Shown one piece after another: positions 16,364-60,452 of a DNA stretch of 64,000 bases. Under the pieces are notes generated by a model, which was given only the letters and a program-made list of their open reading frames with translations, was not told the DNA's origin and did no database searches. The stretch covers positions 79,904-143,903 of the forward strand of contig CALMYB010000001.1 of NCBI GenBank assembly GCA_937873515.1. The letters are read 5' to 3'. How positions within the stretch are numbered: the first letter of the stretch is position 1; each line of letters opens with the position of its first letter. The stretch comes from an uncultured Acidobacteriota bacterium. GTDB lineage: Bacteria; Acidobacteriota; Blastocatellia; Pyrinomonadales; Pyrinomonadaceae. The position numbers and the translations under genes are program-made.

Positions 16364-16379
16364 GCAAAATTATCTTAAC

Positions 16380-20714: not shown

Positions 20715-22469
20715 ATGCTGATTTTGCTCCATCTTTGCTCTGTGTTCCTGCTCGTCGGGCTGGGCTTCTATGTGTTTGCCGCCGATCCGCGCCGCCGCGC
20801 CCATCAAGCGTTTGCCGCATTCATATCGTTCCTTGCCCTTTGGACGATCAAAGATCTTATCTTTTGGGATTTCTATCCAATAGATGCAGCGGCCGGGATT
20901 TGGGCGGCAGCTAGCTTTATCATCGCTTTGCTGATGAATTTCGTATTGGTCGCTTTCGCCTGGGTCTTCCCGGAAAATTCGCGGACTCCGCGCAGAAAGG
21001 CTGCGATCCTTCTTGCACCTGCATTGATCTTCGCTCCGGCCGCAGCCTTTGGACTTTTGTGGGACAAAGCCGGCTTCATCGACGGCCAATTCTCTATAAA
21101 GCTCACGCCGCTCGCGTATGCGTTCGTAACGTACGTCTATTTTCTCTTTTTTTACGGCTCTATCGTTCTTTTCGGCAAATACCGAAAATACCGAGGCACC
21201 GAGAGCGGGTCGCAGCTTGGTGCCATTCTGCTGGCTCTTGTTATTACCGGCGCTTTAAAGACGGTTGCGAACATCGTCTTTCCGCTCTTTGGAAACTACG
21301 ATCTCATACCTCTCAGCTCGATCTTCGTGCTGCCCGGCGTGCTTATATACGCTTACGCGATCTTTAACTTCCGGCTCTTTTCGCTCACGTCCGCTCTCAC
21401 GCAGTTTCGGCTCTTTCCGGTCGCATACAAGGTGGCTATATGCATTGCTGCGGTCGCTGTATCAAGTTTTGTGATCTTTCAGATACCGATCGTATGGTGG
21501 GCGTTCCATAACGGAATGGATGCGGAGGCATGGCGTCGCTATCTCGTTTTCAGCGTGATCTCGGCCCTTGTCCCAAATCTCCTGCTTGTGCTTCTCGTGC
21601 TTAGAACGGTCTTGCGGCCGCTCAAAAGAGTAACGCTGGCTGCCGTTGCGGTCGCAAAGGGTTCTTATGGAGCGGAGGTCGATCTGCGCAAGACGAATGA
21701 CGAGATCGGAGTACTCGCGGAATCTTTCAACAAGATGAGCCGCAAGCTCGCAGACGACATCGAGGAACTGCGGCTCCTGAACGAACGGATGATCGAGACC
21801 GAAAAGTTGAGCGCGATGGGAACCCTTGCGGCAGGTGTCGCCCGCGAGGTCAGCACGCCGCTCGGAGCCATATCTGACAAGGTCGAAGCGATGCGCCGCG
21901 AAGAAGGCCATTCCACAAGCACGCGCGAGGATCTCAGCTTGATCGCCTCGCAGATCGCTCTCGTTACCGACATCATCGCGGATATGAAGGCCTTTGGCCG
22001 CATGGACGGCACGGTAAAGAAAAGCGTGTCAGTGAATGACGTCGTCCTTGCCTCGCTTCGCCTGACGAGCATGGGCGTGAACGATGCACAGATCGAAACA
22101 GATCTTGACGCGAACTCGCCGAGAGTTCTCGGAGACGAGGGCGGGCTCATTCAACTCGTCCTGGACCTTATTCGGAAGGTGCGTCTAGATCCACTTTCCG
22201 AGCTTACGCCGATCTCGGTCTCGACATACACAGCTGGGGCCCAGGTGCTCATCGATATAGCTCAAACTAGCGGCAGCGCCGGCCCCTCGTCCCATTCTGA
22301 GACCGACGCGGCGAGCCTCGACCTTTGGATCAGCCAAAAGTTAGTTTCTGCTCATGAGGGAACTCTCACATCATTCGTGGACGAAAGGAGTCGCAGAGGA
22401 TTCACGATCGCACTGCCGCTGCTTGAACAAAAAGATGCTGCCCGCGTATTGACACCGAGCACGTTTTAG
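20715..22469 (+). CDS. multi-TM sensor histidine kinase-like protein with degenerate catalytic motifs
   Basis: About 8 TM helices and a HAMP-like linker (NDEIGVLAESFNKMSRKL). The dimerisation box reads EKLSAMGTLAAGVAREVSTPL, with Arg (CGC 21843..21845) where the phospho-accepting His is expected. The N, G1 and G2 boxes are not recognisable either. Confidence 0.7.
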   Translation: MLILLHLCSVFLLVGLGFYVFAADPRRRAHQAFAAFISFLALWTIKDLIFWDFYPIDAAAGIWAAASFIIALLMNFVLVAFAWVFPENSRTPRRKAAILLAPALIFAPAAAFGLLWDKAGFIDGQFSIKLTPLAYAFVTYVYFLFFYGSIVLFGKYRKYRGTESGSQLGAILLALVITGALKTVANIVFPLFGNYDLIPLSSIFVLPGVLIYAYAIFNFRLFSLTSALTQFRLFPVAYKVAICIAAVAVSSFVIFQIPIVWWAFHNGMDAEAWRRYLVFSVISALVPNLLLVLLVLRTVLRPLKRVTLAAVAVAKGSYGAEVDLRKTNDEIGVLAESFNKMSRKLADDIEELRLLNERMIETEKLSAMGTLAAGVAREVSTPLGAISDKVEAMRREEGHSTSTREDLSLIASQIALVTDIIADMKAFGRMDGTVKKSVSVNDVVLASLRLTSMGVNDAQIETDLDANSPRVLGDEGGLIQLVLDLIRKVRLDPLSELTPISVSTYTAGAQVLIDIAQTSGSAGPSSHSETDAASLDLWISQKLVSAHEGTLTSFVDERSRRGFTIALPLLEQKDAARVLTPSTF

Positions 22470-41501: not shown

Positions 41502-41594
41502 CGCATTTCGCACAAACTTGATATTATAACGCACTCTCTGATCAAGAGCGACAACAGCCGCGATCCTCGGGCATTCATCGTCAGGCTAGGTTGA

Positions 41595-41618
41595 CATACC
41601 ACTCAAACGGGTGATACA
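41595..41618 (+). promoter_or_regulatory. site A of shared motif (CATACC-N4-AAACGGGTGAT-ACA), overlapping a sigma-70-like promoter
   Basis: TTGACA (41591..41596), an 18-nt spacer, then TACATT preceded by TG. The motif shares CATACC and an identical 11-mer AAACGGGTGAT with site B. It lies 18-40 nt upstream of the LuxR-type gene. Confidence 0.45.
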
Positions 41619-41635
41619 TTGCCTTTCAACTTGGC

Positions 41636-42793
41636 TTGATTACCCCCAAAATGCCCAAAAAGAAGGAAAAGCAGAGTATAAAGGTAGCCGGACGACGTTA
41701 TTCAGGTTCCGACGGCAAGGATCCTCTATCGACTGCCCTCGATGACACGGCAAGGTTATTTAATAATGGGTCGCTCTCGCTTGAGGCTCGCAAAGAAGAA
41801 GCGGCGTCCGGGGAAAGATCGCTCTCTCGGGAACTCGACGATGTTTTCATAAATAAGTACATCGAAACATTTGGTGACATAAAAGCTTCCCCCGAGACAA
41901 GCCGCGCAGCGGCTGACGACCAGGCTCTGGCAAAGACAGACAAGCTACGGGACCAGTCGTTTGAAAAAACTGAGATATATAAGGGCTTCTTTCGGGAATA
42001 CGATATTTTCAACTACGAATATCACGCTCTCGTCCGTCCGGACGGCGTTATGGCCGGGTTCAGCATTTCGCTGCCGGAGCGGAAAAAGGTCTATAGCAAG
42101 AAAGAGCGTGGATCACTGGATTCGCTGCTCCCGCAGCTCCATCAGTCGTTAAGCGACAGCCTTGTCGACATCACCAAAACGTCCGATCATGCCGTCCTGA
42201 TCGAAACCGTGAGCAAGATGACGAGGCCCGCCTTGATCGTTGATCAAAATGCGCGGGTGCGGACGGCCAACGCTCGTGCGGCTAGGATTTTGGAGGCCAA
42301 TGACGGACTCTCGGTCGATAAGAATGGCTCTTTGGCGGCGAGAACCCCGGAAGCGACCAGAGATCTTCATGCGATCCTCGAGACAGTTCATTCCGGACAC
42401 AGAGACGGAACCCAGGACGCAGCGGCCATATGTCTCCTGCGGAGGCCATCCGGCAATCGGCATCTCCAACTCTTGGCATCGCCAATTGGAGACAATTCGG
42501 GAATCGAAGGAGAATTCTTAGCTCTCGTTTTTTTGTGCGACCCCGAAAGATCAGTAAGGGTTAGCGAAGCGGTCCTTCGAAAGCTTTACGAGCTTACACC
42601 CGCCGAGGCTGCGGTCGCTTCCCGGCTTGCTAAGGGCGAATCGGTCGAACAGATCTGCGACCATCTCACGATCACTGCCAATACATGTCGCACCCATTTG
42701 AAGCGCATCTATTCCAAGACCTCAACTTCCAGACAAGGCGAACTCATTTCGCTCATCCTTACCAGCATCGCAACGATTCCCGAGCCATCCTAG
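41636..42793 (+). CDS. LuxR/NarL-family HTH transcriptional regulator without receiver domain
   Basis: C-terminal LTPAEAAVASRLAKGESVEQICDHLTITANTCRTHLKRIYSKTSTSRQGELISLI (GerE/LuxR HTH). The ~300-aa N-terminal region is unassigned. Start is TTG 41636 or ATG 41651. Confidence 0.75.
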   Translation: MITPKMPKKKEKQSIKVAGRRYSGSDGKDPLSTALDDTARLFNNGSLSLEARKEEAASGERSLSRELDDVFINKYIETFGDIKASPETSRAAADDQALAKTDKLRDQSFEKTEIYKGFFREYDIFNYEYHALVRPDGVMAGFSISLPERKKVYSKKERGSLDSLLPQLHQSLSDSLVDITKTSDHAVLIETVSKMTRPALIVDQNARVRTANARAARILEANDGLSVDKNGSLAARTPEATRDLHAILETVHSGHRDGTQDAAAICLLRRPSGNRHLQLLASPIGDNSGIEGEFLALVFLCDPERSVRVSEAVLRKLYELTPAEAAVASRLAKGESVEQICDHLTITANTCRTHLKRIYSKTSTSRQGELISLILTSIATIPEPS

Positions 42794-42819
42794 TGCCACT
42801 TTATTACTTATTTCCTCTG

Positions 42820-42842
42820 CATACCCTAAACGGGTGATGACA
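42820..42842 (+). promoter_or_regulatory. site B of shared motif CATACCCTAAACGGGTGATGACA
   Basis: 18/23 identical to site C with the same spacing and orientation. Lies about 385 nt upstream of ATG 43226. Confidence 0.45.
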
Positions 42843-43225
42843 AAGGCCCGCCGTTGTCGTAACCTCAACGAGATTTGAAGTCAATTTGCTCGTGTCGGAT
42901 TATTTTCGTGTACGAGACTGCAAGCGGGTTGTTGGTCGGCCTTTTTTAAGGTTTATCAATTGATTCGCCTTGACGTTTCATGATCAGGCCTCTCATTGTC
43001 CTCTTCATGAACATTCGCTGACCGGAGACGGGATTCCTTTACGCTCTTCCCTGTCCGCCATCAGCGCGAAACGCCGCGACTTCTTAAACGGATAAATTGT
43101 GATCACGACCAACTTCCCAAGGTCTATAGCACTGTCTACGCGGACGATCAACATCGCCCCGTTAGCTAGCTGCGCAATTTTTCGAGCCCTGTTCAGTTTG
43201 CCGAATATCTCAGGAGAAGAACCAA

Positions 43226-43453
43226 ATGTTTTTAAAGTATATCCCTGTCGAATTAACACGTGCTGCCCGAAACTTAACCGCTAAAGCTACAAGCCTAAGC
43301 CCGCGGCTCAAAGTTTCAGCAGCTTTCCTCACCTTGTGCTTGACCTTCGGCGCCGTTTGGATACAGCCGGCTCTTGCAAGCTCAGCCCCGGCCCCCACGC
43401 CGGCAACCGTCTCGCTCTCAAGCATCGCAGACTACTTTTGGTCTTTCTTCTAA
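43226..43453 (+). CDS. signal-peptide/N-terminal fragment of giant surface protein 1 (ends at in-frame TAA)
   Basis: 75 aa, homologous along its whole length to residues 1-75 of the protein starting at 52893 (MFLK..., WIQP.(L/F)A, Y(F/I)WSFF). Identical RBS context CTCAGGAGAA..CCAAATGTTT. Same reading frame as 43502..52363. Confidence 0.7.
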   Translation: MFLKYIPVELTRAARNLTAKATSLSPRLKVSAAFLTLCLTFGAVWIQPALASSAPAPTPATVSLSSIADYFWSFF

Positions 43454-43501
43454 AGCCCATCAAGCGGCGGTTCAGATAGACGTCCGCCAAAGGCCAACCC
43501 T

Positions 43502-46500
43502 TTGCTGTCAGAAGACACAGGGGCGAAGCAGCAGCCCATACCACCGACCGCTGCCGCTCTCCCATGCACGCCGACAGGGATAACACTCCCGGTACCTAGC
43601 ACATATCCAACTATCCAGGCCGCGATCAATGCCGCAAACCCGGCGGGTGGTGACAAGATCCAGGTGGCGGCAAATACCTACACTGAACAGCTGTCCATAA
43701 CCAAATGCGTCACAATCGAAGGCGCAGGCATCGGTTCAACGATCATCCAGGCTCCTGCGACGTTGGCTCCAAGCGGTGTTCTCGGCTTCACCGGAAATTC
43801 GATAGTCGAGGTGAGGAGTAACTCGTATGTAACTGTCACAGGTGTTACTATCACCGGTCCGCTACCGCTTTTAGCCTATCCTAACAAGACGTTTGGTATC
43901 TTTGTCGCCGAGAATGCCACCCTCGATATGTCAAATTCTCAGGTTACTGCAATTCACACTAGCAGTGGTGTGGACGGCGCCCAGAACGGAACCGGAATAG
44001 GGGTTGGCAGCACAGCGGCGAATACGATCGGCACTATCGTCTTGAACAATGTCACGGTCAATGACTACCAAAAGAACGGTATGCTTGTCGAACGCACTGG
44101 TTCGGTAGCCACAATTGCGAATTCGACCGTAACCGGCATTGGGCCGACGAGTATCATCGCACAGAACGGAATTCAGATAGCAGACGGCGCGACGGGCACG
44201 ATAACAGCTTCGACCATAACACAAAATCTTTACATCATTACGAATCCGCTAAACCCTTGGGCATCATCCGGCGTACTGCCTTGGAATGCCGGGGCAGTGA
44301 CGATCACCGGTTCAACCTTAAATAATAATGATGTCTCCGTTTACACAGGGACAAGCTCTGTTCCCGCTACGCCCGCACCGCTTACGATCACAGGTAATAC
44401 TTTTGACGCTAATACATACAACGCCGTATTTTACGACGCCGAGCACCCGGTAACGATCACCGATAATATTGTAACCAACACCAATTCAGCCTTTGGCGGC
44501 CTTGTTTTTGACGGGCAGACATCGACGATCTCGCGCAACTCATTCACTCTGGCCGCCGGAAGCGGCAGCGCAGGCCTTGGTTTCTACAACTACGACGACT
44601 TGTCGCCGACGACGACGGCAACGATCAACGCTCATTTCAACCGCCTATCGAGCGACAACGCAGGTGGACGCGACGGCATTTATAACGAAACTTCGAGCAA
44701 CGTTAACGCAGAAAATAACTGGTGGGGCTGTAACGCGGGACCCGGGAATACTGGCTGCGACGTCGTTAATGACACAAGCGCAGGCACAACAAACTACAGC
44801 CCTTGGCTGACGCTCACGGGTATAACTGCGTCAGCGCCTACGGTTCAATACAACGGAACATCAAATATCACAGGTGTCAGTCTCTGTATGAATTCGGTTT
44901 CGGCCGATGTTTGTACCCTCACCGACCACATCATCGACGGCCTTGCGTTCGGATATGGAACAGCACCTGGTACAGCGGGATCGGTATCTCCCACAACATC
45001 AACTTTTATGACCGGAGTTGCGAACGCCGGTACGACATTCACCGCGGGCGCCGGTCCATTCGTCGGCGACCAGACCGAAGCCGTCGGAGCGACCTTCGAC
45101 AACCAAACGATCTCGACGAACGTCGTCGTCCACGACAGCACCCCGCCTACGTTGGTCTCGTTTACTGCGGATACGGCTGATCCGCAGAATTCGCTGACGG
45201 TGACATTTACGGCAGTCTTCAGCGAACCGGTAATTAATTTTGACGGTGGTGATTTTGGCACTGCATCCGGAAGCGTTAATTCAGTTACGCAAATAGCTCC
45301 GATGGATGGCACGACCTGGAAGGTTACGGCTACTGCGAATCCGGGATCGACTTCAATGTCGGTCAATCTTCTTAGCGGCGGTATTCAAGACACGGCGGTG
45401 CCCGCAAACAATCTTGGAAGTGGCCAAAATGTTACAGTGACCTTTGCTTCTGCGTCAGGGGAATTCATCGTCGACGAAGCAGGCATTAACTGCCTCGGCA
45501 ACGGCAAACCGATCTTTACTGATATTCCAAGTGCAGCGAGTGCGGCGAGTACGGGATCAACGATACGCGTCTGCCCGGGTACGTATCCGCAAGGCAGTTC
45601 GACGGTATCAATCCCAAGCGGAAAGAACAATGTGACGATCATCAATGCTCAGGCGACAAAACCTGTGGTCAATGTTTCCGGAACGAGTTATGGATTTCAG
45701 ATCGGCGGAAGCGGGGCCACGATCGAAGGTTTCGAAATTCACAAAATCGACAACGTGGACAAGAACGTCATCACAATCCAAGGCACGAACTTCACCGGCC
45801 AGAATCTCGACTTCATTGCTGATACACCATGGTCAGGCGGGCAGGTTTCGCGTGCCTTTGAGGTCTCAAGCACCGGACTTAACATCAATAACAATACGAT
45901 CACCGATTTCCGGCAGCCGGCGTATATAAACGGCGACGGCTCAACAAACCTCGGTACGATCTCGAACAACGTTTCATCTGGTACCAAGGGCTGGGTATTC
46001 GATAATGCGATGGTCACGATGACCGGCAATACGTTTCCCGCGGGCTGCGCAGCATGCGGGTTCAGCGACATTGCGGTCTTCCCAGGTGCTTCGGCTACTG
46101 TCCAGGCATTCTGGGGCGGCACGAACGCTCTTGCTATCAGCAACACGAATGACAACGCGTATCTTGACCTGCAATGGACAGGTGCGGGCGATGACGGGCG
46201 TGCGATTAGCTATGTTGACGATATCGTAACCGCCGGCAACGGCAGGACGGTGGCGGCTGCGCGCAACTCGATCCAGGACGGCATCGACAACACTCTTATC
46301 GGCGGCACCGTTCACATCGAACCGGGCACATTCGTCCAGGAAGCCAACGTAAATCGAACCGTCAAGGTTGAAGGATCGGGAGCCGAAGGCGCAAATCAAT
46401 CGAAGGTGTCGGGACCTATCGGCGGCACGGATAGTGCGACGATTCGTATCACGGCGAACAATGTCGATATCAGCGGACTTCTTATCACCCGCGAAGGCAA

Positions 46501-49500
46501 CAACACGACTGATTGGAATAGCGGTCTGAAGTCCGCCGGGCTTGCGATCCAGGGTCAGGCAACCACAGGTGCGGTCATCCACGACAACAAGTTTGACGGT
46601 AACCGGAACGCTCTTGATATCAACAATTCGAACGGCCACACGATCCGCAATAACGTTATCGACAACAACCGAACCGGAATGATCTTTCGAAATCAGACCG
46701 ACAATTTGAAGGTTGTTGAAAACGCGATCACCAACAACTGGACAGTAGGCGTTCTCTTCCTTGATGCAAGCGGCGGGACGAATTCGCCCGTGCAGACAGC
46801 CGCAAACTCCATTTTTAGCAACAACAACATTAGCGGAAATTGGTACGGTCAGATCGTTGAACGCCAGGCAGGCGGTTCCCTTCCCGCGCCTGGCACGAAT
46901 TTGAAGAACTTCCAGGGCAACTGGTACGGCTCAGCTGCTCCGGTCGTCACGACCGCCAATAGTACGGAACCCGGATATTCGGCACTGATACCGGTCGCCT
47001 ACGGCGGAACCGCAACTGCTCCGGGCGGTCAGCCCGATATCGCAGGTCCGGCTTCCGCGAACTTCCGCTACGATCTGCCATTGACCGTTGGAACTGACAC
47101 TGACGTTGAAACAATCTCAGGCCGCGGAACTTACGGCTTCCAGGGCGCGAATCTCGTTGTCAACAGCGCCGTGACGATCAACGATCCAGATCCTCGTCCG
47201 GCCGGGTGGTTCTTCTGGAACGAAGGGCCGAACGGCTCGCATGGGTTAGAGACTGGGCCGAACGGCAGTCATCTCGGCGCCGGCAGTGCTCGTCTGAGTA
47301 TCGACGTAAACGGTCGCGAGAGTTTTGGAACGGCGGCCTACGGCGGTATTCGACTTCGCGACATCACCAAACTGAAGTTCAAGACGTGGACGACGGGCCC
47401 GGATGCTCCTGTTCTGCAGTTCGATGTGGATAACGATCTCTCTGAAAATACGACCATTCCCGACACGACATATCAAGGCCGTCTTGTATTTCAACCGGCA
47501 GGCACTGTAACGCCGAATACTTGGCAGCAATGGGACATATTTGCCCCCGGAACTCTGGTTTGGGGAAGTGGTTCGGGACCAAATCGACCGTTTTCAAATG
47601 CCTGTCCGCAATCAAACCCATGCACGCTCGCAGCGTTGCTCGCGAATAATACTTTCAAAGATCTGGGTGTAAGGCTTCCCGGCGGCGGCGGAACTCTGCT
47701 CTTCCGTGCAGGCGGTCCATCAAGCACGGATATAACCGAGTTTGTCGACGATTTTGAGGTCGGAATCCAAACCGGAAACACTACCTACGACTTTGAACCC
47801 GATCTCAACACCGCTCCTACCGTGACCTCGATCACACGCGGCGGTCCCGATCCGACAAATGCTGCGAACGTTACGTTCAACGTTGCGTTCAGCGAACCGG
47901 TAACGGGCGTTGATACTACTGACTTTGCTCTCGATACTGCAGGCGTTTCAGGTACGTCGATCTCGAACGTTACAGGGTCGAATGGAAACTACGTCGTTAC
48001 GGTCAATACAGGCTCAGGCAGCGGCACGATCCGCCTCGACGTGAATGCCGGAGCGTCAATCTTCGACATCGCGAACAACCAGTTTGGCAATGCTTACACC
48101 GGGCGTGAAATTTACACGATCGATAGGACGGGGCCGAACTCTACGGTCTCGCCTGTCGCGGATCCTGACACGACGTCGCCTGTTGACTTCACGGTCAGTT
48201 TTGGCGAGACCGTTACCGGATTCGATGCCGCGGATGTAACGATCGGCGGTTCAGCCAATCCAACGGGATTCACGATCGATGGCTCTTACACCGTTCACGT
48301 TACCGGTATGAATCAGTCCGGCACGGTGACCGTCAGCATCAACAACGCAGGCGTTACCGACTCACTCGGCAATGCGGGTACCGGAGCATCGTCTAGCTCT
48401 GCACAATTCAACCAGCAGACAACACCGAACGTCCAGACGCCTTTGGCACCGACCTGGGCGTACTATGACGACAATACGAACGCCGTAATCTCCGGCTATG
48501 ACTATGTTTATGGGCCGAACGGCGGGCCGCTGCCGGCGGGCAGTGCTCGCTTGCAGAGCGGAGCCGGCGATCTCAAAGGTCTGTTCACGCAAGACTATAA
48601 CAACACGAAGCTCGCTAACATTACGACGCTCAGCTACTCGACCTATGTCCACGGCTCGGCAACGAATGAGCCGACGCTTCAGTTCAACGTGGATTATGAC
48701 CTTACAGACGGCAACACGACCTACCAGGGCCGCGTGGTTTACGTCCCAAGTCAAAACGGCAGCGTCTCGGCTGACACCTGGCAGAATTGGAACGCTTTGA
48801 CAGGCGTATTCTGGTATTCGTCACTTTCGCCAGTAGCAATTGAGTGTACACAAACTGTGCCCTGCACGCTCAGCCAGATGCTCGCGGCTCATCCAAACAT
48901 GGGCATCCATGCTACGGCCGGAGCTATCGGTTTCCGATCCGAGCAGAACAGCAACTCCAACGTTGACAACTTCGTGATCGGCATCAACAGTGCGAACACT
49001 GTGGTCAACTTCGAGCCCGCGGGGGCGATGGTGAGCACGCCTTCGTCACCGAACGGCTGGTTCTATTGGGAGGATGACGATGACCATCTCGTAACGGGAT
49101 ACGATTATGTATTTGGGCCTTTGGGCGGACCGCTTCCGGTGGGAAGCGCCCGCGTCGCGAGCGGAACCACGCCCGGCGATCAGAAGAAGGGGCTCTTTAC
49201 ATTCCAGTATCGCGGTACGCCTCTTGATCAACTGACGACGCTCAAATATTCAACCTATGCCGCTACGGCAGGTGATGTTCCATATTTCCAGATAAGCGTT
49301 GACTTTACGGGTAACGCCAATCCGGGATACCAAGGCCGACTGGTCTATGTCCCGAGTGAGAACGGCACATTTACCGCGAACACTTGGCAGACCTGGGATA
49401 TGTTGGCTTCGACTGCGAAGTTCTACTATTCGTCCGGCACTTACTCGCCAAATGGCGACGGATGTCTAGCAAGTGAAGGCAACGGCGGCTGCACTCTGGC

Positions 49501-52363: not shown

Positions 52364-52651
52364 GTAAGAAGGTAAGTTTGGGTGGAGAGCATCAAGATCC
52401 TTGCCGCTTGCCACCCTTGCTCTTTTCCTAAGATCGCGTAGAACGCACGATTTATCTTCCCACAAATGGCATGCTGCTTTTTCTCCCACTAAAGCGGTAT
52501 GCCATTTTCTTTTCGTCCGCGAGAACCTTGGACGGTTGACCCAGATCGTACAAACAGGCCATCGGCCGCTGCCGCGTGGGCCGATTCTCCCCGTTCATCG
52601 CGCTAGATACCTGTCTAACCATAGCCTGATCAAAACGACCAATTTATATGG

Positions 52652-52674
52652 CATACCTCAATTGAGTGATGACA
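52652..52674 (+). promoter_or_regulatory. site C of shared motif CATACCTCAATTGAGTGATGACA
   Basis: Contains the perfect 10-bp palindrome CTCAATTGAG (52657..52666). Reads as 7-2-7 TACCTCA-AT-TGAGTGA. Lies about 220 nt upstream of ATG 52893. Confidence 0.45.
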
Positions 52675-52892
52675 GGTTCTCCGCAACCTGTGCAATCTAT
52701 ACGGAAAATTAGCAAAGACCTGCGGTCTTCCTTTGGCATTTGCCCCCAAAGAGCGTTTCTCGTCCTCGTTCGATCAAGTTTCGGGAGTGACGCGCAATTC
52801 CATTCCCGGGGGGCGGCTTGAAGTGATGACCGCCTTTTCTGTTTCACTCGGCGAACGGAAGCGCATTTTTTAGGTTCTCAGGAGAAAGCCAA

Positions 52893-55800
52893 ATGTTTCT
52901 GAAAAGGAATCCCTTCGTTTTTGTATCAGCTCTTCGATATTTTGGAAATATCGCATCCGGTCTTGAACTGCGTTTGAAGATCTCAGCCGCACTTGTCGCC
53001 TTGGGCATCGCCGCCGGCCTTGGCTGGATACAGCCGACGTTTGCAAATTCAGTTGTCGCCCCTGTTGAGGCGAGCTTCTCGCTTTCGGGTATTTCTGCCT
53101 ACATTTGGTCATTCTTCTCGCACGACGGTCGACGACGGATCCCGACTCCGCGTCCTGCCCGAGACATTGCATCCTTTGGCAGTCGGGAGAGCCTTCCCCA
53201 GACTTCTTCTGCCGCTCCTTGTTCTCCTTCCGGCGTAACCCTGAATGTTCCGGGAACGTATCCGACCATCCAGGCGGCAATTAACGCGGCCAACCCCTCC
53301 GGCGGCGATACGATCGCAGTTGCCGCAGGCAGCTATACTGAGCAGATATCGGCAGGAAAGTGCGTATCGATCGTCGGCTCGGGAGTCAGCAGTACGACGA
53401 TATTTGCACCCGCGACCATGGTTGATAGTACAGTACCCGGCGGCTCGGCCAGGGCGATCGTCGAAGCACGGGCGAACGCATATGTCACCGTCAAAGACCT
53501 ATCGATCTCCGGCCCGGTCACGTTTTCTCCAACGAGTGGAACCTTTGGCGTCTTCGTGGCGGAATCGGCGACCTTGAACATGCGCAATGTTCGCGTCACG
53601 ACTATACAGCAGTCTTCCGGAATTAACTCTGCCCAAGACGGACAAGGAATTGTTGCAGGTGATACGACCTTCGGCACTGCGGGCTCCCTCGATCTTGATG
53701 GGGTTACGATCGATGGTTATCAGGAGAATGGCATACTCGTAGGGGGCGCCGGCTCTTCCGCAACCATCGCGAATACAACGGTAACCGGCACGGGACCGAC
53801 CAGCTTGATAGCACAGAGCGGGATCCAGATCTACGGAGGAGCGTCCGGGGTTATCTCTTCCTCGACCGTAAACGATAATCTGTACTCATTGAATTCAGGA
53901 GCCGCTACAGGAATTCTCACTGCGGATGCGGGAGCTGTATCGGTTTCGGGCAGTGCATTCAGCGGAAATAGCTACGCGATCTATCAATACAATTCGGCTC
54001 TCCCGCTTACCCCTTCAAACTTTTCAGCGACAGCCTGCACGTTCACGAATAATCCCGGAGCAGGCATCGTTTATTCAGCGGCCGCAAGCCCGACGATCAC
54101 AAATAACTTCATCTCCGGGAGCAATATCGGCATCGCCGGATTTGTTGCTGACAACCAAACGTCAACGGTGAAGGGCAACTCGATCACTAACGCGACGGGA
54201 GCCAACAGCGTTGCGATCTTTTTCAACGACTTCAGCAGTTCCGTCAACACAACGTTAGCGACGGTCAATGCGAACTTTAACCGACTCTCGAGCAACAACA
54301 CCGGCGGCCTAGCGGGCCTTCAAAACGACTCTGCCAGTTCGGTCAATGCTGAAAATAATTGGTGGGGATGTAATGCCGGCCCGGGCGCTACCGGGTGCGA
54401 CATCGTCGCCGGTACGGGCCCCGGTGTCGTCGACAGTGATCCGTGGTTAACTCTCAGTGGGATAACTGCTTCGCCTGTAAGTCTGAATTATTCGCAGACG
54501 TCAACGATCAGCGGTGTGAACCTGTGCACAAACTCGGCCGCAGCAACCGTGTGCAGCCCTGCCGATCACACTCCTGATAGCCTGAGCGTTGCCTACTCCA
54601 CGTCGCCGGGCACGAACGGCTCGGTTGCGCCGGCAAGCGGTGCGTTCACAACCGGTGTCGCGGCGGGTACAACGTTCACCGCCACGAGCGGGCCGATTGT
54701 CGGCAACCAGATCGAGAACGTCGGTGCTATTTTCGACAATCAAACCATCGCAACAGCAATTACAATACTCGATCCATCAGGCGGAATCTCCATCAGTGGA
54801 CGGATCACCGCCTACACTGGCGGTGCCGGGATAGACGGAGTTACTGTAACCTTAACTGGAACTAGCAGCGGCAGCCCCGTCAACCTTTCGACCACTACCG
54901 CGTCCGGTGGGAACTTCGCGTTCAGCGGCGGCCTTTTCGCGAACGGATCATACTCGATCATTCCGTCATGCCCGAGTGACCCGCAATGTTCTGCCTTTAC
55001 CTTTGATGCTTCCCAGCGAGACTATCTCAACCCGCCGAGCAGTATAACGACTGCGGATTTTGTTGGCTATAACGGAGATAATCCAAGAGATGTGGTGATC
55101 AAGAACACAACTCAAACGCCTGTTCTTCCGGGACAGCCGGCCGGAGTGGGCGCCAATATTACCGTGCCGATTCAGATCGCAAGTCAAGGTACCGAGAATG
55201 CAATGGCATTTACGCTGGTCTATGACTCGAGTAAGCTGCAGTTCTTATCGGCCGCATGCGACCCTTCTCTGGCATCGTTGGGATGCGGCATTACTCAGCC
55301 CGGGCCGGGCGGCTCGCCGACGACCTTGACGATGGCCTTACAGCCCGGAGCTGTTCTGCCGGCATCAGCCACACCGGCAACGGCCTTGTTGGTCACCTTC
55401 AAGGCGACCCCGGGCACGTCGACGTCGACACCGCTTGCCTTCAATACGATCCCGAGTTCCAAATCCGTCAGCAACAATAACGGCTACGCAGTACCTGCGG
55501 ACTGGATAGATGGTGTGGTTTCTTTCGCTGGCGGTTTTGAAGGCGATGTCGCTGGAGGACAACCAGCAAGCTCTGGGATACCGAATGGCCAGGTCACGTC
55601 GGGAGATATCACGAGGATCCTAAATCTGGTTTCTCACAATACAACGCCAAACCCAAACGTAAACGAGTATCAGCGTGCAGACTGTGCCCCGATCGGAACC
55701 TTTGGAAATGGCCTGCTCACCTCGGGTGATGTCACCGTAGCCTTGCGTTACGCAAACGGTGACCTGGTTGGTATCCACAACCCGGCAGCAGGAGCCTCTA

Positions 55801-56576
55801 CCGGGCTTAGGCAAACACAGGTTCCTCGCGATCGGGACTCTAGATCGCCGTCACTTTTACTCGCACCGGGAGATGTCAGCGTTCTCGGAGCCCTTGCGGC
55901 CCCAGGCAGCACTGTCGCAATTGATATCGAGCTTGAGGGCCAAGGTATCGAAGCAGGATTTGGATTCACACTTGAGTTCGACCCAAATGTGCTGAGTCTG
56001 AGCACTCCCGGCGGGGTTTCTGAAGGGGCTGACGTCTCAACGTATCCTCATATATTCTCACCTAACATATCGCAGGCTTCGAGCGGAAGAATCGGTGTTG
56101 TTTACAATCTCACGACCTTTGGTGCGAGTATGACCCCGGCGGGACCAAAGAGGATTGTTCACGTGACGTTTTTAGTAAACTCTGCTGCCGTCGTTGGAAG
56201 CACTACACCGATCTCGTTCTCAGACGCGGTTTCCATTAGAGAGGTCAACGACGTTGACGGAAATTCCTTGACTCCAAATTGGGGTGATGGGGTCATCGAG
56301 ATCAGTCTCTCCCCGACGGCGGCTGAATCTTCAGTTGGCGGGCAAGTAAGGACGAATGATGGTCGAGGAATTGGAAATACTGTCGTTACCTTGACTGGTG
56401 TTGACGGCGTAGTCCGCAGAGCGTTAACGAACTCCTTTGGATATTATCGTATAGACAATGTACCGACAGGAGCGACGTACGCCTTAGGAGCTACTTCGAA
56501 GCGGTATGCTTTTGATACTCGGGTAATCACAGTGGGCGACAATATCACTGACGCAGACCTCACACCGCGCGAATGA
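52893..56576 (+). CDS. giant secreted surface protein 2
   Basis: 1227 aa with an intact signal peptide. Collinear with the N-terminal ~480 aa and C-terminal ~750 aa of protein 1. Domain order is beta-helix, CarboxypepD_reg, cohesin, dockerin-like, cohesin, CarboxypepD_reg CTD. It lacks the central ~1700 aa of protein 1. Confidence 0.85.
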   Translation: MFLKRNPFVFVSALRYFGNIASGLELRLKISAALVALGIAAGLGWIQPTFANSVVAPVEASFSLSGISAYIWSFFSHDGRRRIPTPRPARDIASFGSRESLPQTSSAAPCSPSGVTLNVPGTYPTIQAAINAANPSGGDTIAVAAGSYTEQISAGKCVSIVGSGVSSTTIFAPATMVDSTVPGGSARAIVEARANAYVTVKDLSISGPVTFSPTSGTFGVFVAESATLNMRNVRVTTIQQSSGINSAQDGQGIVAGDTTFGTAGSLDLDGVTIDGYQENGILVGGAGSSATIANTTVTGTGPTSLIAQSGIQIYGGASGVISSSTVNDNLYSLNSGAATGILTADAGAVSVSGSAFSGNSYAIYQYNSALPLTPSNFSATACTFTNNPGAGIVYSAAASPTITNNFISGSNIGIAGFVADNQTSTVKGNSITNATGANSVAIFFNDFSSSVNTTLATVNANFNRLSSNNTGGLAGLQNDSASSVNAENNWWGCNAGPGATGCDIVAGTGPGVVDSDPWLTLSGITASPVSLNYSQTSTISGVNLCTNSAAATVCSPADHTPDSLSVAYSTSPGTNGSVAPASGAFTTGVAAGTTFTATSGPIVGNQIENVGAIFDNQTIATAITILDPSGGISISGRITAYTGGAGIDGVTVTLTGTSSGSPVNLSTTTASGGNFAFSGGLFANGSYSIIPSCPSDPQCSAFTFDASQRDYLNPPSSITTADFVGYNGDNPRDVVIKNTTQTPVLPGQPAGVGANITVPIQIASQGTENAMAFTLVYDSSKLQFLSAACDPSLASLGCGITQPGPGGSPTTLTMALQPGAVLPASATPATALLVTFKATPGTSTSTPLAFNTIPSSKSVSNNNGYAVPADWIDGVVSFAGGFEGDVAGGQPASSGIPNGQVTSGDITRILNLVSHNTTPNPNVNEYQRADCAPIGTFGNGLLTSGDVTVALRYANGDLVGIHNPAAGASTGLRQTQVPRDRDSRSPSLLLAPGDVSVLGALAAPGSTVAIDIELEGQGIEAGFGFTLEFDPNVLSLSTPGGVSEGADVSTYPHIFSPNISQASSGRIGVVYNLTTFGASMTPAGPKRIVHVTFLVNSAAVVGSTTPISFSDAVSIREVNDVDGNSLTPNWGDGVIEISLSPTAAESSVGGQVRTNDGRGIGNTVVTLTGVDGVVRRALTNSFGYYRIDNVPTGATYALGATSKRYAFDTRVITVGDNITDADLTPRE
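55083..56310 (+). other. cohesin / dockerin-like / cohesin cassette of giant protein 2
   Basis: Cohesin-like blocks at about 55083-55535 and 55869-56310. Dockerin-like segments are PNGQVTSGDITRILNLVS and GNGLLTSGDVTVALRYANG, joined by the conserved linker PNPNVNEYQRAD. Confidence 0.6.
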
Positions 56577-56639
56577 GTCGAACTAAGCTGGAGTCGAGGG
56601 CCTGAGGCTACCGATCCTATCAGGTGTTCTAATGCGTCC

Positions 56640-57371
56640 TCAGTTCCCGTTCAGTTCCTCTCCGTTGGTCGAAGGGCGATAAGCCGGATGATGGGCAGGA
56701 CTCCCCGGCGCTTCGACAAGCCCGTTCTCGTAGGCATAGATCACCAGGTTAAGCCTGTCGTCAACACCGATCTTTCCGTAGATCGAACTTAGATGGTGCC
56801 GAATCGTCGCCTCACTGACGGCGAGTTCACGGGCGAGTTCCTTGTTCTTTCGACCGGCCGCCAAAAGCTTTATTACCTCAAGTTCTCTAGGAGTCAAAGA
56901 TTCCGCGTCGGTTGCCCTAGAATGATTTGCCGAAGTCTCGCTTGGGTGTTTCTCCCTCTCAAGGATCTTGTGAAGGACGGTTTGATTCAACCAGGTTTCG
57001 CCGGCATAGGTCTGGCGGATAGCCTCGACCAAGAGTTTTGCACTCTGCTCGATCTGAACGATGCCGACAGCACCCATTTTCAGAGCACGAGCCTGCGAGT
57101 CCAGATCCGCTCCGGCAACGAGGATAACAACCCGAAGCGCCGGATTCTCGTTCAATAGATGCCCAACGACATCAACCTGATCTTCTGCGGTCAAATAGAC
57201 GACAGCAACATCGGCATTTAAGACGCTGGATGTACTGCCTTTTGTGTGGTCGAAAGTGTATAGCCCCGTGACAGAGAGGCCCTCATTCGACTCGATAAGA
57301 TGCCTAAGGCTCTCCTGCACGATCTCGTACTTACCGACAAGGAGGACACCGATATGTTTACTTCTACTCAT
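56640..57371 (-). CDS. LuxR/NarL-family regulator with pseudo-receiver domain
   Basis: C-terminal HTH LTPRELEVIKLLAAGRKNKELARELAVSEATIRHHLSSIYGKI. Aligned by eye to NarL, the acidic pair is GK, the phospho-Asp position is Tyr (VAVVYLTAE), and the conserved Thr/Ser and Lys positions are also substituted. Confidence 0.75.
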   Translation of the reverse strand: MSRSKHIGVLLVGKYEIVQESLRHLIESNEGLSVTGLYTFDHTKGSTSSVLNADVAVVYLTAEDQVDVVGHLLNENPALRVVILVAGADLDSQARALKMGAVGIVQIEQSAKLLVEAIRQTYAGETWLNQTVLHKILEREKHPSETSANHSRATDAESLTPRELEVIKLLAAGRKNKELARELAVSEATIRHHLSSIYGKIGVDDRLNLVIYAYENGLVEAPGSPAHHPAYRPSTNGEELNGN

Positions 57372-58240
57372 GGGGATCTAATTGCAATCTTCTATTTTAA
57401 AGCTGAATAGTATCTGCAAGGAAAACGCTGGGAACCGGCTGAGTCCAGTTTCCCACATCGAATCCTACATCATTTGTCCAATCTTGCATAGCGCAAATAT
57501 ACAGCACCCTCTTAACACAAACGCCCATCGTTCCGACACGTTAGCTTCGACGAAGGACAATTCCGCTTATTTGTGATCTATGAAATGTCGCCATACCTAA
57601 GACGGATTCCACCTAAAGAAAGTAGAAAAACTTGCGTATTTTCAACTTTTCTCAGCATTCGTGCTCCTTCACACATCTATTAGACGCACCCTAGTTATCG
57701 CTTTTGCCTTGACGCACACCTTCCAACAGCCCAAGAAGTGCAGTGGTTTTGGCTGCTTAGCATAGTAATCGGAGGATTGGCCTACGTATATTGACCGAAA
57801 ATATCGAAATGCGCTATCTGCCTATTGGTCAGATGTCCAATGGCCCTATATCAGGCCAGAGGGACATATGTATCACGAAATATATCGAATTAGCCGATGA
57901 TGTGTGTGCCTGTGCGGCCTTAACATTAATCCCATATTCAATCCAGAACGAGGAACGAGTGATCGCTGCCAGTTCCTCTTGTTGGGATTCAAACTGAAAG
58001 CTGGTCTGAGTCTCGAATGAATATGTGTCTATAGAATGCTGTATGGGTAGGCCATGTGGAAATACGTATCAGCGGCTCAGAAAATCCGGATAAGTTGATC
58101 CGGTTGAGAGACGGCCGCGTGTTCGACCCGAAACGTAACAATCTGATCGTTGGTTTGAGTTTAATATTTTTCCCACCTGTTACTCCGAATCAATGCGGAA
58201 GGAGCGACGAGTTGAAGTAATAAATTAAGGTAGGAAATCT

Positions 58241-58963
58241 ATGACATCCCCAATCATCAAGCTGGTCATGATCGGAGAATATTCGATCTTTAGGGGAGCA
58301 TTGCGAATGCTCCTCGAAACTGACCCCAAGTTTCGCGTTATAGGCGAAGCTAAGAATCCTGAATCTGCACTGCAAATTATCGATGACGAGAGGCCGGACC
58401 TTATCTTGGTTGACCTTCCCGACAACGATGTTGCCAAACTGCTTCCTCTTCTCAAAGACGCGGAACTGCCCGTCTTGCTGCTCATCGATGAACTTGACGT
58501 TGAGATCTATAAGCAATGCCTGAGAATCGGCATCCGCGGACTCGTCCTAAAGCAGGAGCGCGCGGACACTCTGTTCAAGGCAATTGAAAAGATCCATGCA
58601 GGTGAGATCTGGTTCGATCGGATCGTAATGGGTGACACCATTCGTCATTTGATCGGAGAAATGCAAATGCTTCACTCCCTTCCCCTCAGTCCGGTCGCGT
58701 CCGCGCTGACCGATCGGGAACGCGAAGTGATAGGTCTGATCTGCAAAGGAATGAAGAATAAGGAGATCGCAGAATCTCTCTTCATTTCTGAAACAACGGT
58801 CCGGCATCACCTGACCTCGATCTTCAACAAACTGGATATAACCAGCCGTCTCGAACTCGTTGTTTATGCGTTCGAGAACAACCTGGTAAAGAAACTGAAC
58901 GAAAGCAGCTTCTATCCAATGAACGGCTACGCCAGGAACACGACGGATTCGTTGGGAGCCTGA
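58241..58963 (+). CDS. LuxR/NarL-family response regulator with atypical receiver
   Basis: HTH LTDREREVIGLICKGMKNKEIAESLFISETTVRHHLTSIFNKL. The receiver keeps the Asp (LILVDLP) and Lys (LVLKQ), but the acidic pair is GE and the Thr/Ser position is Ile. Paralogue of 56640..57371. Confidence 0.75.
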   Translation: MTSPIIKLVMIGEYSIFRGALRMLLETDPKFRVIGEAKNPESALQIIDDERPDLILVDLPDNDVAKLLPLLKDAELPVLLLIDELDVEIYKQCLRIGIRGLVLKQERADTLFKAIEKIHAGEIWFDRIVMGDTIRHLIGEMQMLHSLPLSPVASALTDREREVIGLICKGMKNKEIAESLFISETTVRHHLTSIFNKLDITSRLELVVYAFENNLVKKLNESSFYPMNGYARNTTDSLGA

Positions 58964-59132: not shown

Positions 59133-59420
59133 ATGCCGACTGATAAGAATGATAAGAAGCTGAAAAAGCTTCAACGCAGGAAGAAGAAAAAAAATGCCTT
59201 GATCATGTGCCATGACGGAAAGGAGTACTGGACGACCCAGACCGAATTTTGGCAATGGGTGCGCAGCTGTGTAGTACGAAAGGTGAGCGATGCTCCCCTT
59301 AGAGGCCAGTTCATCCGTCAGAACGAAGAGTACAACGTTGTTATCGGCAATACGGTTCTAAACCTAAAGTGCCCGAACCATCTAAGCGAGGCACTGTATG
59401 CCCGTAGAAAAGCATATTGA
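59133..59420 (+). CDS. hypothetical small basic protein
   Basis: 95-aa ORF with a Lys/Arg-rich N-terminus (KKLKKLQRRKKKKN) and Trp/Cys-containing core. No family recognised. Confidence 0.3.
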   Translation: MPTDKNDKKLKKLQRRKKKKNALIMCHDGKEYWTTQTEFWQWVRSCVVRKVSDAPLRGQFIRQNEEYNVVIGNTVLNLKCPNHLSEALYARRKAY

Positions 59421-59442
59421 CCAGAAAACCTGCTGGACTTCG

Positions 59443-60441
59443 ATGAGGGGAATCATTTCGAATGAGTTGAGCTTTGCGTTATCGATCCTCTTCTGCGTGT
59501 GTGTACCGCAAATGACGTTGGGCCAGTCGCCGAATGCCACCCCACAACCTAATGGTCCTGTTGCGGCGATGAACTATAGGATCGGGCCGGGCGACGTGAT
59601 CGACGTACTCGTAACAAAGAACGAGGCGTTGTCTCGTACCGGTGTTCGCGTAAATAGCCAAGGCACAATCCAGTTGCCGATGCTCGATAACGATATTTCG
59701 GCAGCCTGTCTCACTGAAGGGCAATTAGCAGAACGGGTTGAGGAAGCTTACAGGAAATATCTTGTTTCGCCATCGGTAAATGTTTCTGTTCGTGAATTCA
59801 ATTCAAACCCGGTCGCCGTCATTGGGGCGGTAAACTCACCCGGACGATTCCAAATGCAGCGTCCGATCCGACTTGCCGAACTCCTCACGTTCGTCAACGG
59901 GCCGAGCACAAGCGCCGGCAGAACGGTCGAGATAATTCGCGACCCATCACATCCGTTCTGCGATGGACCTAAACTTGAAAGGCCGATCGCCACTGGAGAG
60001 GAACTCTTGTCGTTTCGGCTGGATGATGTGTTCCGCGGCGGGGAACAAACCAACCCGCTCATAAAAGCAGGCGATGTCGTTCGGATTGCTGAGGCCGATA
60101 AGGTTAATGCCTATATTCAAGGAAACATTCGTAGCGCACTCGCGATAAATCTTGCGGATCCGGTTACCCTCACGCAGGCAATCGCAATGGCCGGAGGGAC
60201 AACCTCCGGGGCACAACTCGACAAAGTTTCCATCAGGCGACAGATAGCCGGGTCGATAAACCGCAATGAAATGGTCGTTAACGTCAAAGAGATCAATCAA
60301 GGCAAGCGCGACGACGTGCTATTAGAACCGAACGACATTATCAACGTACCCGGTCCAACTGGAAGCAAAAAGATCCTTGGTGATATTTTCCGTTCGATCA
60401 TTCCGACGATAACCCGGTTTCCGGTGTCAGTTATCCCATAG
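59443..60441 (+). CDS. polysaccharide export protein (Wza family; Poly_export + SLBB)
   Basis: Signal-like LSFALSILFCVCVPQMTLGQ, YRIGPGDVIDV, RPIRLAELLTFVNG, KAGDVVRI, NDIINV. Alternative start at 59398. Confidence 0.85.
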   Translation: MRGIISNELSFALSILFCVCVPQMTLGQSPNATPQPNGPVAAMNYRIGPGDVIDVLVTKNEALSRTGVRVNSQGTIQLPMLDNDISAACLTEGQLAERVEEAYRKYLVSPSVNVSVREFNSNPVAVIGAVNSPGRFQMQRPIRLAELLTFVNGPSTSAGRTVEIIRDPSHPFCDGPKLERPIATGEELLSFRLDDVFRGGEQTNPLIKAGDVVRIAEADKVNAYIQGNIRSALAINLADPVTLTQAIAMAGGTTSGAQLDKVSIRRQIAGSINRNEMVVNVKEINQGKRDDVLLEPNDIINVPGPTGSKKILGDIFRSIIPTITRFPVSVIP

Positions 60442-60452
60442 GCCGATACGGG

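Follow-up and report, generated by a model that had tools for sequence, protein, structure and literature searches.

A candidate PAS-LuxR-controlled module of giant β-helix proteins with cohesin-dockerin-cohesin cassettes, adjoining an exopolysaccharide locus in the Pyrinomonadaceae

The 64,000-nucleotide stretch of DNA analyzed here (the window; positions 79,904 to 143,903 of contig CALMYB010000001.1, assembly GCA_937873515.1) derives from an uncultured acidobacterium of the family Pyrinomonadaceae and holds, at 41595-58963, the genes of two giant proteins and of three regulators with a LuxR-type helix-turn-helix (HTH) domain, named LuxR1, LuxR2 and LuxR3 below. The initial annotation of this region had proposed a regulon producing a self-associating surface or matrix scaffold by way of cohesin-dockerin contacts. 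Its five open reading frames (ORFs) are confirmed at 41636..42793 (+), 43502..52363 (+), 52893..56576 (+), 56640..57371 (-) and 58241..58963 (+), nothing else of size lies between these genes, and, as it had noted, the list of ORFs in the module has no kinase, ATPase, sortase or transposase interleaved. The features on which the argument depends are given below, in which the L-numbers (range L001-L025) denote related loci compared with the window, and AF2, pLDDT and pTM stand for AlphaFold2, the predicted local distance difference test and the predicted TM-score, HMM for hidden Markov model, and Coh-Doc-Coh for cohesin-dockerin-cohesin.

41591..41620, plus strand: sigma-70-like LuxR1 promoter, TTGACA-18-TACATT with a TG extension, 10/12 matches, overlapping motif copy 1
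41595-41618, plus strand: motif copy 1, CATACCACTCAAACGGGTGATACA, pattern match over the LuxR1 promoter
41651..42793, plus strand: LuxR1, 380 aa, with the ATG used in orthologues; N-terminal region of ~300 aa, PAS-like stretch, C-terminal GerE HTH
42815..52420, plus strand: 9.6-kb segment with motif copy 2 and giant 1, variably present in close relatives; L022 joins 42814 to 52421
42820-42842, plus strand: motif copy 2, CATACCCTAAACGGGTGATGACA, 26 nt past the LuxR1 stop (which ends at 42793) and 406 nt ahead of the giant 1 ATG
43226..52363, plus strand: giant 1, 3,045 codons, interrupted by TAA at codon 76; long ORF 43502..52363
43451-43453, plus strand: in-frame TAA, codon 76 of giant 1, right after the signal-peptide region
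50975..52105, plus strand: giant 1 Coh-Doc-Coh cassette; Cohesin 30.6 and 44.5 bits, Dockerin_1 E = 0.079, family HMM 3.7e-87
52118-52360, plus strand: CarboxypepD_reg-like tail of giant 1, equivalent to that of giant 2, with which it shares the 300-nt repeat D1
52652-52674, plus strand: motif copy 3, CATACCTCAATTGAGTGATGACA, 241 nt ahead of the giant 2 ATG
52893..56576, plus strand: giant 2, 1,227 aa, paralogue of giant 1
53211..54779, plus strand: right-handed β-helix module of giant 2 (AF2 model, pLDDT 89, pTM 0.89)
55083..56315, plus strand: giant 2 Coh-Doc-Coh cassette; Cohesin 20.7 and 47.9 bits, dockerin by profile, AF2 model
56331..56573, plus strand: C-terminal CarboxypepD_reg β-sandwich tail of giant 2 (Pfam; 300-nt repeat D1)
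56640..57371, minus strand: LuxR2, pseudo-receiver and LuxR HTH; GerE 60.6 bits, Response_reg 16.6 bits (below cut-off)
57372..58240, no strand: divergent intergenic region of LuxR2 and LuxR3, 869 bp, with invariant blocks and ATATCGAAAT boxes and no 23-nt motif
58241..58963, plus strand: LuxR3, atypical receiver and LuxR HTH; GerE 71.8 bits, Response_reg 38.9 bits

The comparison of related sequences supports a conserved, operator-like motif as the link between the LuxR1 gene and the giant genes. The motif, an imperfect 23-nt dyad of the form CATACC-N-AAAyGGGTGAyGACA, had been noticed upstream of the first regulator and of both giants, and these three copies are indeed present, with no other in the window; it sits on the LuxR1 promoter and 240-406 nt upstream of the giant genes. 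Shuffled sequence is expected to contain 0.01 matches to the pattern, a comparison that is circular in that the pattern was derived from the three sites themselves, and the independent support is conservation in related loci. In the MiaB-LuxR1 spacer of eight loci the block of motif and promoter is the most conserved, with 23/30 of its columns invariant versus 12/101 outside it, and upstream of the giants the motif is the second most conserved block, the first being the region of ribosome-binding site and start codon. Loci whose LuxR1 is only 52-57% identical show this conservation too. Copy 2 is kept at the same place in L006-L012, L014, L016, L018, L020, L023 and L025, and copy 3 is kept in L004, L005, L006, L012 and L022 and degenerate in L001-L003 and L013. 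Among 241 million metagenome records the giant-type motif has nine exact matches, five of which occupy the LuxR1-to-giant position; the contigs of the other four have no homology to this locus, three of these matches fall inside ORFs, and none yields a further candidate for the regulon. An Rfam scan of the whole window returns only a tRNA at 1-76, so that no known RNA element accounts for the motif or the long leaders. Two further candidates were set aside: in the leader from motif copy 2 to giant 1, a terminator-like hairpin (42926-42942) is at chance level (2 found versus 2.2 expected) and kept only in the closest relative, and a possible resemblance of the motif core to a CsgD box, CGGGKGAKNKA, carries no weight, a literature search for the string having found nothing.

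All three regulators had been recognized as LuxR-HTH proteins, which the GerE scores of 31.3, 60.6 and 71.8 bits for LuxR1, LuxR2 and LuxR3 (Pfam cut-off 23.5) bear out. LuxR1 had been described as receiverless, and Pfam indeed finds no receiver domain in it, but the protein does have a weak PAS-like input region: residues ~190-295 match PAS and PAS_4 at 17.2 and 17.0 bits (E ~0.005), weak matches relative to Pfam cut-offs near 23. Several homologues carry PAS PF08448 or PF13188 and are named as CsgD-family/PAS proteins, and the family of ~380-aa PAS/LuxR proteins has dozens of members of equal length in Acidobacteria (Bryobacteraceae) and Alphaproteobacteria. The N-terminal 300 residues have no sequence match in the PDB, and orthologues proper occur in 5 of the 185,579 species representatives of GTDB. 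LuxR1 is, by its sequence, a likely one-component regulator with a probable sensory region rather than an input-less one.

The two giants share a signal-peptide-like N-terminus that is conserved between the paralogues. In giant 1 it is followed by a β-helix, an Ig-like module (Big_12) and a second, NosD-like β-helix, and then by four ~210-aa repeats among further Big_12 modules, a Calx-β and a CarboxypepD_reg-like module, the Coh-Doc-Coh cassette and a CarboxypepD_reg-like tail. Whole-protein Pfam scans list Beta_helix (61 bits), NosD, Big_12 and Calx-beta in giant 1 and CarboxypepD_reg in giant 2 only, the two CarboxypepD_reg-like modules of giant 1 being assigned via the paralogy of the two proteins. 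The four repeats (residues ~1236-2370; 46931-50335) are 27-62% identical in pairs, share a recurring YQGR(L/V)VYVP and match no Pfam family. Giant 2 has a 100% identical counterpart, annotated as a hypothetical protein, in a Pyrinomonadaceae metagenome-assembled genome (MAG), which places the window on the chromosome of an acidobacterium in the class Blastocatellia. The protein corresponds to residues 1-637 of giant 1 (50% identity) joined to residues 2479-3045 (44.5% identity), without the ~1,840 central residues. Neither this paralogy nor the in-frame TAA of giant 1 had been mentioned in the initial annotation, whose upstream start at 43226 is in frame with the long ORF but split from it by the TAA at 43451-43453.

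In the structural model, the N-terminal modules of the giants have the right-handed β-helix fold of polysaccharide-binding and -processing enzymes. The nearest PDB folds are the A-modules of the AlgE4 and AlgE6 epimerases, an alginate epimerase/lyase, pectate lyase, fucoidan lyase and phage capsule depolymerases, with AlgE4 matched at E = 7e-7 and a TM-score (TMt) of 0.58; TM-scores range overall from 0.4 to 0.58, at 13-16% identity. By sequence, a phmmer search of the β-helix against the PDB returns nothing, and the C-terminal half gives chance matches only. The catalytic motif of AlgE enzymes is YG(F/I)DPH(D/E), and an AlgE-type DPH or similar motif is found in neither giant.

The C-terminal cassette had been read as cohesin and dockerin modules, neither of which is listed for the giants by whole-protein Pfam scans. 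On excised segments (Pfam gathering scores 24.1 bits for Cohesin, PF00963, and 22.9 bits for Dockerin, PF00404), the Cohesin family is reached at 47.9 bits by the second cohesin of giant 2 and at 44.5 and 30.6 bits by the second and first of giant 1, with the first cohesin of giant 2, at 20.7 bits, falling below the cut-off. The AF2 model of the giant 2 cassette (pLDDT 78.7) consists of two β-sandwiches around a helical middle of three helices, and in a Foldseek search its top 50 PDB matches are all cohesins, which have a nine-stranded jelly-roll β-sandwich fold, with TMt up to 0.87. The middle segment is supported as a dockerin at the level of the family profile: a profile built on the homologous segments of 38 proteins has as its top PDB matches dockerins (4uyp_B, 3.7e-5; 1ohz_B, 9.7e-5), whose duplicated, EF-hand-like loop-helix repeats of ~22 residues are both covered, 18/38 family members reach Pfam Dockerin_1, and all nine family-invariant residues are present in both giants. 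The profile searches thus uphold the cohesins, by Pfam on the excised segments and by fold, and the dockerin by its family profile only; of the families that had been named for checking, Beta_helix, Calx-beta (giant 1), CarboxypepD_reg (giant 2) and GerE are found and Dockerin_1 is below the cut-off in both giants.

Within the window the cassette occurs in the giants only. A word-indexed homologue search with the cassette gave just nine proteins, and its distribution was counted from an exhaustive HMMER search, in which it appears in 1,335 clusters at 50% identity. Among the best 150 of these clusters, 95 match all three modules as one unit, and in most of them the match ends 66-100 residues before the C-terminus. 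The short tails that follow are CarboxypepD_reg in 27/39 and a type IX secretion sorting domain (Por_Secre_tail) in 3/39; several of the remaining nine, which match neither, are ~70 residues long and end in ...F(Y/F)RL. The cassette thus directly precedes apparent C-terminal sorting domains, and probably does so in several phyla. The few carriers whose names reveal their taxonomy are all from Acidobacteriota and of varied type, with one annotated metalloprotease among them. A literature search for cohesins and dockerins in Acidobacteria, Blastocatellia or Pyrinomonadaceae found nothing specific, and this C-terminal cassette, no description of which was found in the searchable literature, is the more novel aspect of the locus.

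All related loci but one, within a narrow Pyrinomonadaceae clade, show the order MiaB(-), LuxR1, giant(s), LuxR2(-), and in L001, L002, L004, L005 and L013 it is followed by LuxR3, a small ORF and the Wza, Wzc and NeuB-type genes; the sequences of L003 and L023 end within or just past LuxR3. Both giants are present in the window, L006 and L012, giant 2 alone in L001-L005, L013 and L022, and the distant relatives have one intact giant-1-type gene of 2,687-2,957 aa. To judge from these sequences, the ancestral state is a single giant, of which giant 2 is a paralogue. Hence the proposed order of one LuxR gene, two giants and two LuxR genes is kept in relatives as LuxR1, giant(s) and LuxR2, but not as regards the two giants. 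The 42815-52420 segment is cleanly missing from L022, a very close relative, and a short sequence, TTTCCT, is shared near both of its junctions. LuxR2 is still the neighbor of the giant in the distantly related L008, L009, L014 and L023. L007 keeps LuxR1 and the motif and has a 1,029-aa version of the giant, after which an unrelated canonical response regulator takes the place of LuxR2. LuxR1, motif and giant travel together in every locus examined except L015 and therefore form a conserved unit, in which the copy number and size of the giant vary. At L015 (9968-12919; Acidobacteria bacterium OLB17) residues 1-243 of a LuxR1 orthologue lead into a 983-aa ORF with FG-GAP repeats, with a transglutaminase gene and rRNA next and no giant, which may be a rearrangement or a chimeric contig.

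The other two regulators had both been assigned degenerate receivers, and control independent of phosphorylation had been suggested on that ground. For LuxR2 this holds: aligned to VraR and NarL, its receiver has lost all catalytic positions (DD to GK, phospho-Asp to Tyr, Thr to Ala and Lys to Ile), substitutions that are conserved in orthologues down to 75% identity, and the protein is, by its sequence, a likely pseudo-receiver regulator. For LuxR3 it holds only in part, as DD is replaced by GE and Thr by Ile, but the phospho-acceptor Asp and the Lys are kept and the domain passes Response_reg, so that phosphorylation is possible. Over its C-terminal 138 residues (aa 79-216), LuxR3 has its best PDB match in VpsT, and EIWFDR (residues ~124-129) aligns with EMWLTR, the c-di-GMP-binding segment of VpsT, WFDR and WLTR agreeing at 3/4 positions with the Arg kept. 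A W[F/L/M][T/S]R motif reportedly follows the receiver in VpsT-type proteins, and neither regulator has it in full, since LuxR3 has Asp instead of Thr/Ser at the third position and LuxR2 has WLNQ, without the Arg. The WLTR segment of VpsT includes R134, a residue needed for c-di-GMP binding (PMC3359988). Between genomes whose copies of the neighboring genes are 79-86% identical, LuxR3 reaches 98% identity, which points to a much stronger constraint on this gene. The LuxR2/LuxR3 spacer has a mean column identity of 84% among close relatives, with long blocks that are invariant even where LuxR2 is only 75% identical; two ATATCGAAAT-type boxes lie at about 57800-57820 and 57870-57905, where Rfam reports nothing.

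Taken together, there is about an even chance, in our judgment, that the locus is a lineage-restricted module at the head of an exopolysaccharide (EPS) locus in one Pyrinomonadaceae clade, controlled by a PAS-LuxR regulator and encoding secreted β-helix proteins that self-assemble at the surface or in the matrix. In this model LuxR1 would act as a one-component sensor-regulator that binds the 23-nt dyad, represses its own promoter, as is proposed because the motif lies between the -35 and -10 boxes, and activates the giant gene or genes. The giants would leave the cell by Sec export, following which the dockerin of one molecule could bind a cohesin of another giant or of another cassette protein, giving rise to a non-covalent network on the surface or in the EPS. 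LuxR2 and LuxR3 would act mainly on their own conserved spacer and the adjacent EPS genes, LuxR3 being VpsT-like and possibly responsive to a ligand or to c-di-GMP. By analogy, the island might be a biofilm-matrix unit comparable to the vps/rbm genes of Vibrio under VpsT. The single regulon of the initial annotation is thereby retained as far as the motif ties LuxR1 to the giants; that it spans all three regulators is not borne out, the motif being missing at LuxR2/LuxR3 and at the EPS genes.

Several observations weigh against this model. There is no copy of the motif in the LuxR2/LuxR3 spacer or the EPS genes, so that the giants and the EPS genes are linked by adjacency alone, and ahead of the giants the motif lies far, at 240-406 nt, from the start codons, a promoter search near these sites having found none. 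The module encodes no system for outer-membrane translocation or anchoring, which makes a surface location an assumption. The dockerin assignment stays below Pfam's gathering score: the giant 1 segment matches Dockerin_1 over 13 residues at 13.6 bits (E = 0.079), the giant 2 segment has no match, and the dockerin loops are expanded (consensus DVAPRPxGDGxVTxxD) with non-canonical Ca2+ positions, of which, relative to canonical positions 1, 3, 5, 9 and 12, only the first Asp, G-D/N-G and the position-12 Asp are conserved. The module is missing in the related species OLB17 (L015), one of the five GTDB species with a LuxR1 orthologue, and giant 1 is interrupted in this very genome by the in-frame TAA.

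The meaning of that stop codon can itself be read in two ways, as a recent pseudogene or as an artefact of the MAG consensus. The TAA codon is TCA (Ser) in the L006 orthologue, a Ser stands at the same position in giant 2, and the L012 orthologue is one intact ORF. In this genome the nonsense codon has probably inactivated giant 1, and giant 2 would be the copy that still works. That the stop instead reflects assembly or the population, with both giants functional in the organism, is somewhat doubtful, yet it would agree with the single C-to-A change that separates TAA from the TCA of L006, the remaining 8.9-kb open frame, the intact L012 gene and the minority alleles that MAG consensus sequences may contain. 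Assembly errors are, however, more typically indels than substitutions, and giant 1 is dispensable, being deleted in the close relatives L001-L005, L013 and L022, which fits relaxed selection. An exact look-up of the giant 2 sequence, aimed at independent assemblies of the genome in which the TAA could be read, gave no record. In L006 (3498-4306; 10001-19109) PyrF and giant 1 are both split into several ORFs, which suggests assembly frameshift errors and not biology.

The model also has to be set against different views of the function and the regulation of the giants. The scaffold proposed for them is one option among several, given that at their N-termini they share the fold of β-helix enzymes acting on polysaccharides, and the giants might instead be secreted enzymes that degrade or modify polysaccharides (lyases, epimerases or depolymerases), which the cassette brings together in cellulosome-like complexes that serve to acquire nutrients or to tailor the EPS of the cell itself. 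This is unlikely in our estimate: the top fold matches to epimerases, lyases and capsule depolymerases, the metalloprotease among the other carriers of the cassette and the adjoining EPS locus speak for it, but the TM-scores reach just 0.4-0.58, the sequence searches of the PDB are empty, the catalytic DPH motif of AlgE is missing, and Pfam gives only generic Beta_helix and NosD, β-helices being common in adhesins as well. On the regulatory side, two neighboring but independent units, LuxR1-motif-giant(s) and LuxR2-LuxR3-EPS, might be present rather than a joint scaffold regulon. Such a division, which we consider rather improbable, would explain why the motif is confined to LuxR1 and the giants, why the 98% identity of LuxR3, against 79-86% for its neighbors, is in step with Wzc (91%), and why L007 can have an unrelated regulator at the LuxR2 position; it has to contend with the fact that LuxR2 follows the giant wherever the sequence extends past the giant, except in L007, that LuxR3 and the EPS genes are reached in L001-L005 and L013 (LuxR3 only in L023), and that matrix proteins beside EPS genes are an established arrangement. 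It is more improbable still that LuxR2, LuxR3 or an unlinked factor binds the motif and that LuxR1 is a target in a cascade and not the direct regulator of the giants. All three regulators have a GerE-type HTH, a motif over the LuxR1 promoter fits control of LuxR1 by another protein equally well, and LuxR2 stays beside the giant in the distant L008, L009, L014 and L023; against that, LuxR1, motif and giant co-occur at all examined loci but the giant-less L015, L007 keeps LuxR1 and the motif with a different regulator in place of LuxR2, and the LuxR2/LuxR3 spacer has other conserved boxes and no motif copy.

A broader and more tentative proposal, which goes beyond the surface or matrix module favored here and which we regard as possible rather than probable, is that the cassette together with the C-terminal β-sandwich is an undescribed and widespread device for surface display and self-assembly, which snaps varied secreted proteins of Blastocatellia, among them β-helix giants and metalloproteases, into an extracellular lattice; in this clade, one such protein would have acquired its own PAS-LuxR regulator and operator beside a VpsT-like, possibly c-di-GMP-sensing EPS regulator. 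The tail would then be CarboxypepD_reg in Acidobacteriota and a type IX sorting or "...FYRL" domain in other members, and the lattice would represent a non-covalent, cellulosome-like principle for building the envelope or matrix of diderm bacteria.

The module lies between housekeeping genes (FeoB, DUF3108, PyrF, GlnA and MiaB), of which MiaB, GlnA and PyrF form the upstream flank by Pfam, and an EPS export locus, which had been said to follow immediately and is indeed found directly downstream, with Wza-like and Wzc-like genes that Pfam identifies and that together span 59398..62924 (+).

59398-60441, plus strand: Wza-like protein (Poly_export/SLBB; Pfam), EPS export, downstream flank
60453-62924, plus strand: Wzc-like protein (Wzz/GNVR/AAA_31; Pfam), EPS export, downstream flank

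In relatives the EPS locus continues with NeuB, Epimerase_2 and CTP_transf_3 genes. Between LuxR3 and Wza lies a small ORF at 59133-59420, which overlaps the start of Wza and encodes 95 aa here and 71 aa as called in relatives; its position is kept in L001-L005, and neither Pfam nor NCBIfam matches it. Further genes of the window with a link to the envelope or to secretion are a matrixin-like metallopeptidase with CarboxypepD_reg at 13675-14940 (-), which adjoins a second SLBB-domain protein at 15219-16367 (-), and a HAMP-domain protein at 20715-22469.

Acidobacteria are abundant in soil and activated sludge, and how they build surfaces and flocs is poorly known. A compact unit in which a sensor-regulator, a defined operator, a giant protein with a self-assembly cassette and EPS genes are found side by side offers an experimental handle on matrix formation in these bacteria. 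If the cassette is a general assembly device, the cohesin-dockerin logic would reach well beyond the degradation of plant fiber and could supply new orthogonal protein-protein connectors for biotechnology. The regulators, in turn, add a likely pseudo-receiver and a VpsT-like protein from outside the Proteobacteria, which makes receiver switching testable in a new lineage.

Compared with known systems, the module is a variant of kinds already described, namely non-cellulosomal cohesin-dockerin proteins and VpsT/CsgD-type regulators, and not a wholly new system. The claim of the initial annotation that its composition is without precedent accordingly does not stand, since VpsT/CsgD-type pseudo-receiver regulators of the matrix and single proteins with cohesin and dockerin have been reported (PMC12632262, PMC3359988, PMC4611034). 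VpsT of Vibrio cholerae and CsgD of enterobacteria belong to a recognized class, the regulators with pseudo-receivers (PMC12632262, PMC3359988), which LuxR2 and LuxR3 resemble in combining a receiver-like domain with GerE, in their degenerate phospho-sites and in adjoining EPS genes. They differ from VpsT in that LuxR3 has Asp at the third motif position, keeps the phospho-Asp and Lys and shares identity with VpsT only over its α6/HTH half, and in that LuxR2 has WLNQ. LuxR1 is akin to the PAS-LuxR one-component regulators in its length of ~380 aa and in the PAS-like region ahead of a C-terminal GerE HTH; such regulators carry the JGI label "CsgD family/PAS domain-containing", and the NCBIfam match to BagY/FevT is weak. 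It departs from them in that its orthologues, linked to the motif and a giant, form a narrow group and its PAS match is sub-threshold in Pfam.

AlgE-type mannuronan C-5 epimerases, the best structural match to the β-helix, are likewise secreted, modular and genetically associated with exopolysaccharide, but the similarity is low, and the giants are without the DPH motif, RTX R-modules and type I secretion genes. With respect to the cassette, the closest parallels are non-cellulosomal proteins. The Archaeoglobus fulgidus cohesin (PDB 2xdh) is among the top structural matches, and Amy4 of Ruminococcus bromii has cohesin and dockerin in one polypeptide and may self-aggregate (PMC4611034); the giants likewise have both modules in one chain, and their dockerin-like duplicated loop-helix matches PDB dockerins by profile. 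Unlike in those proteins, the modules here form a fixed Coh-Doc-Coh unit that directly precedes the C-terminal β-sandwich and is carried by giant β-helix proteins of a diderm acidobacterium, and the dockerin loops are expanded and sub-threshold. The clostridial and ruminococcal cellulosomes use the same two module families, and nearly all of the top-50 fold matches are cohesins of cellulosomal scaffoldins. In contrast to cellulosomes, the module has no multi-cohesin scaffoldin, no S-layer homology (SLH) or sortase anchor and no glycoside-hydrolase family domain detected by Pfam, and it is proposed to be under LuxR-type regulation, whereas cellulosome genes are regulated by the RsgI/SigI system (PMC12484212).

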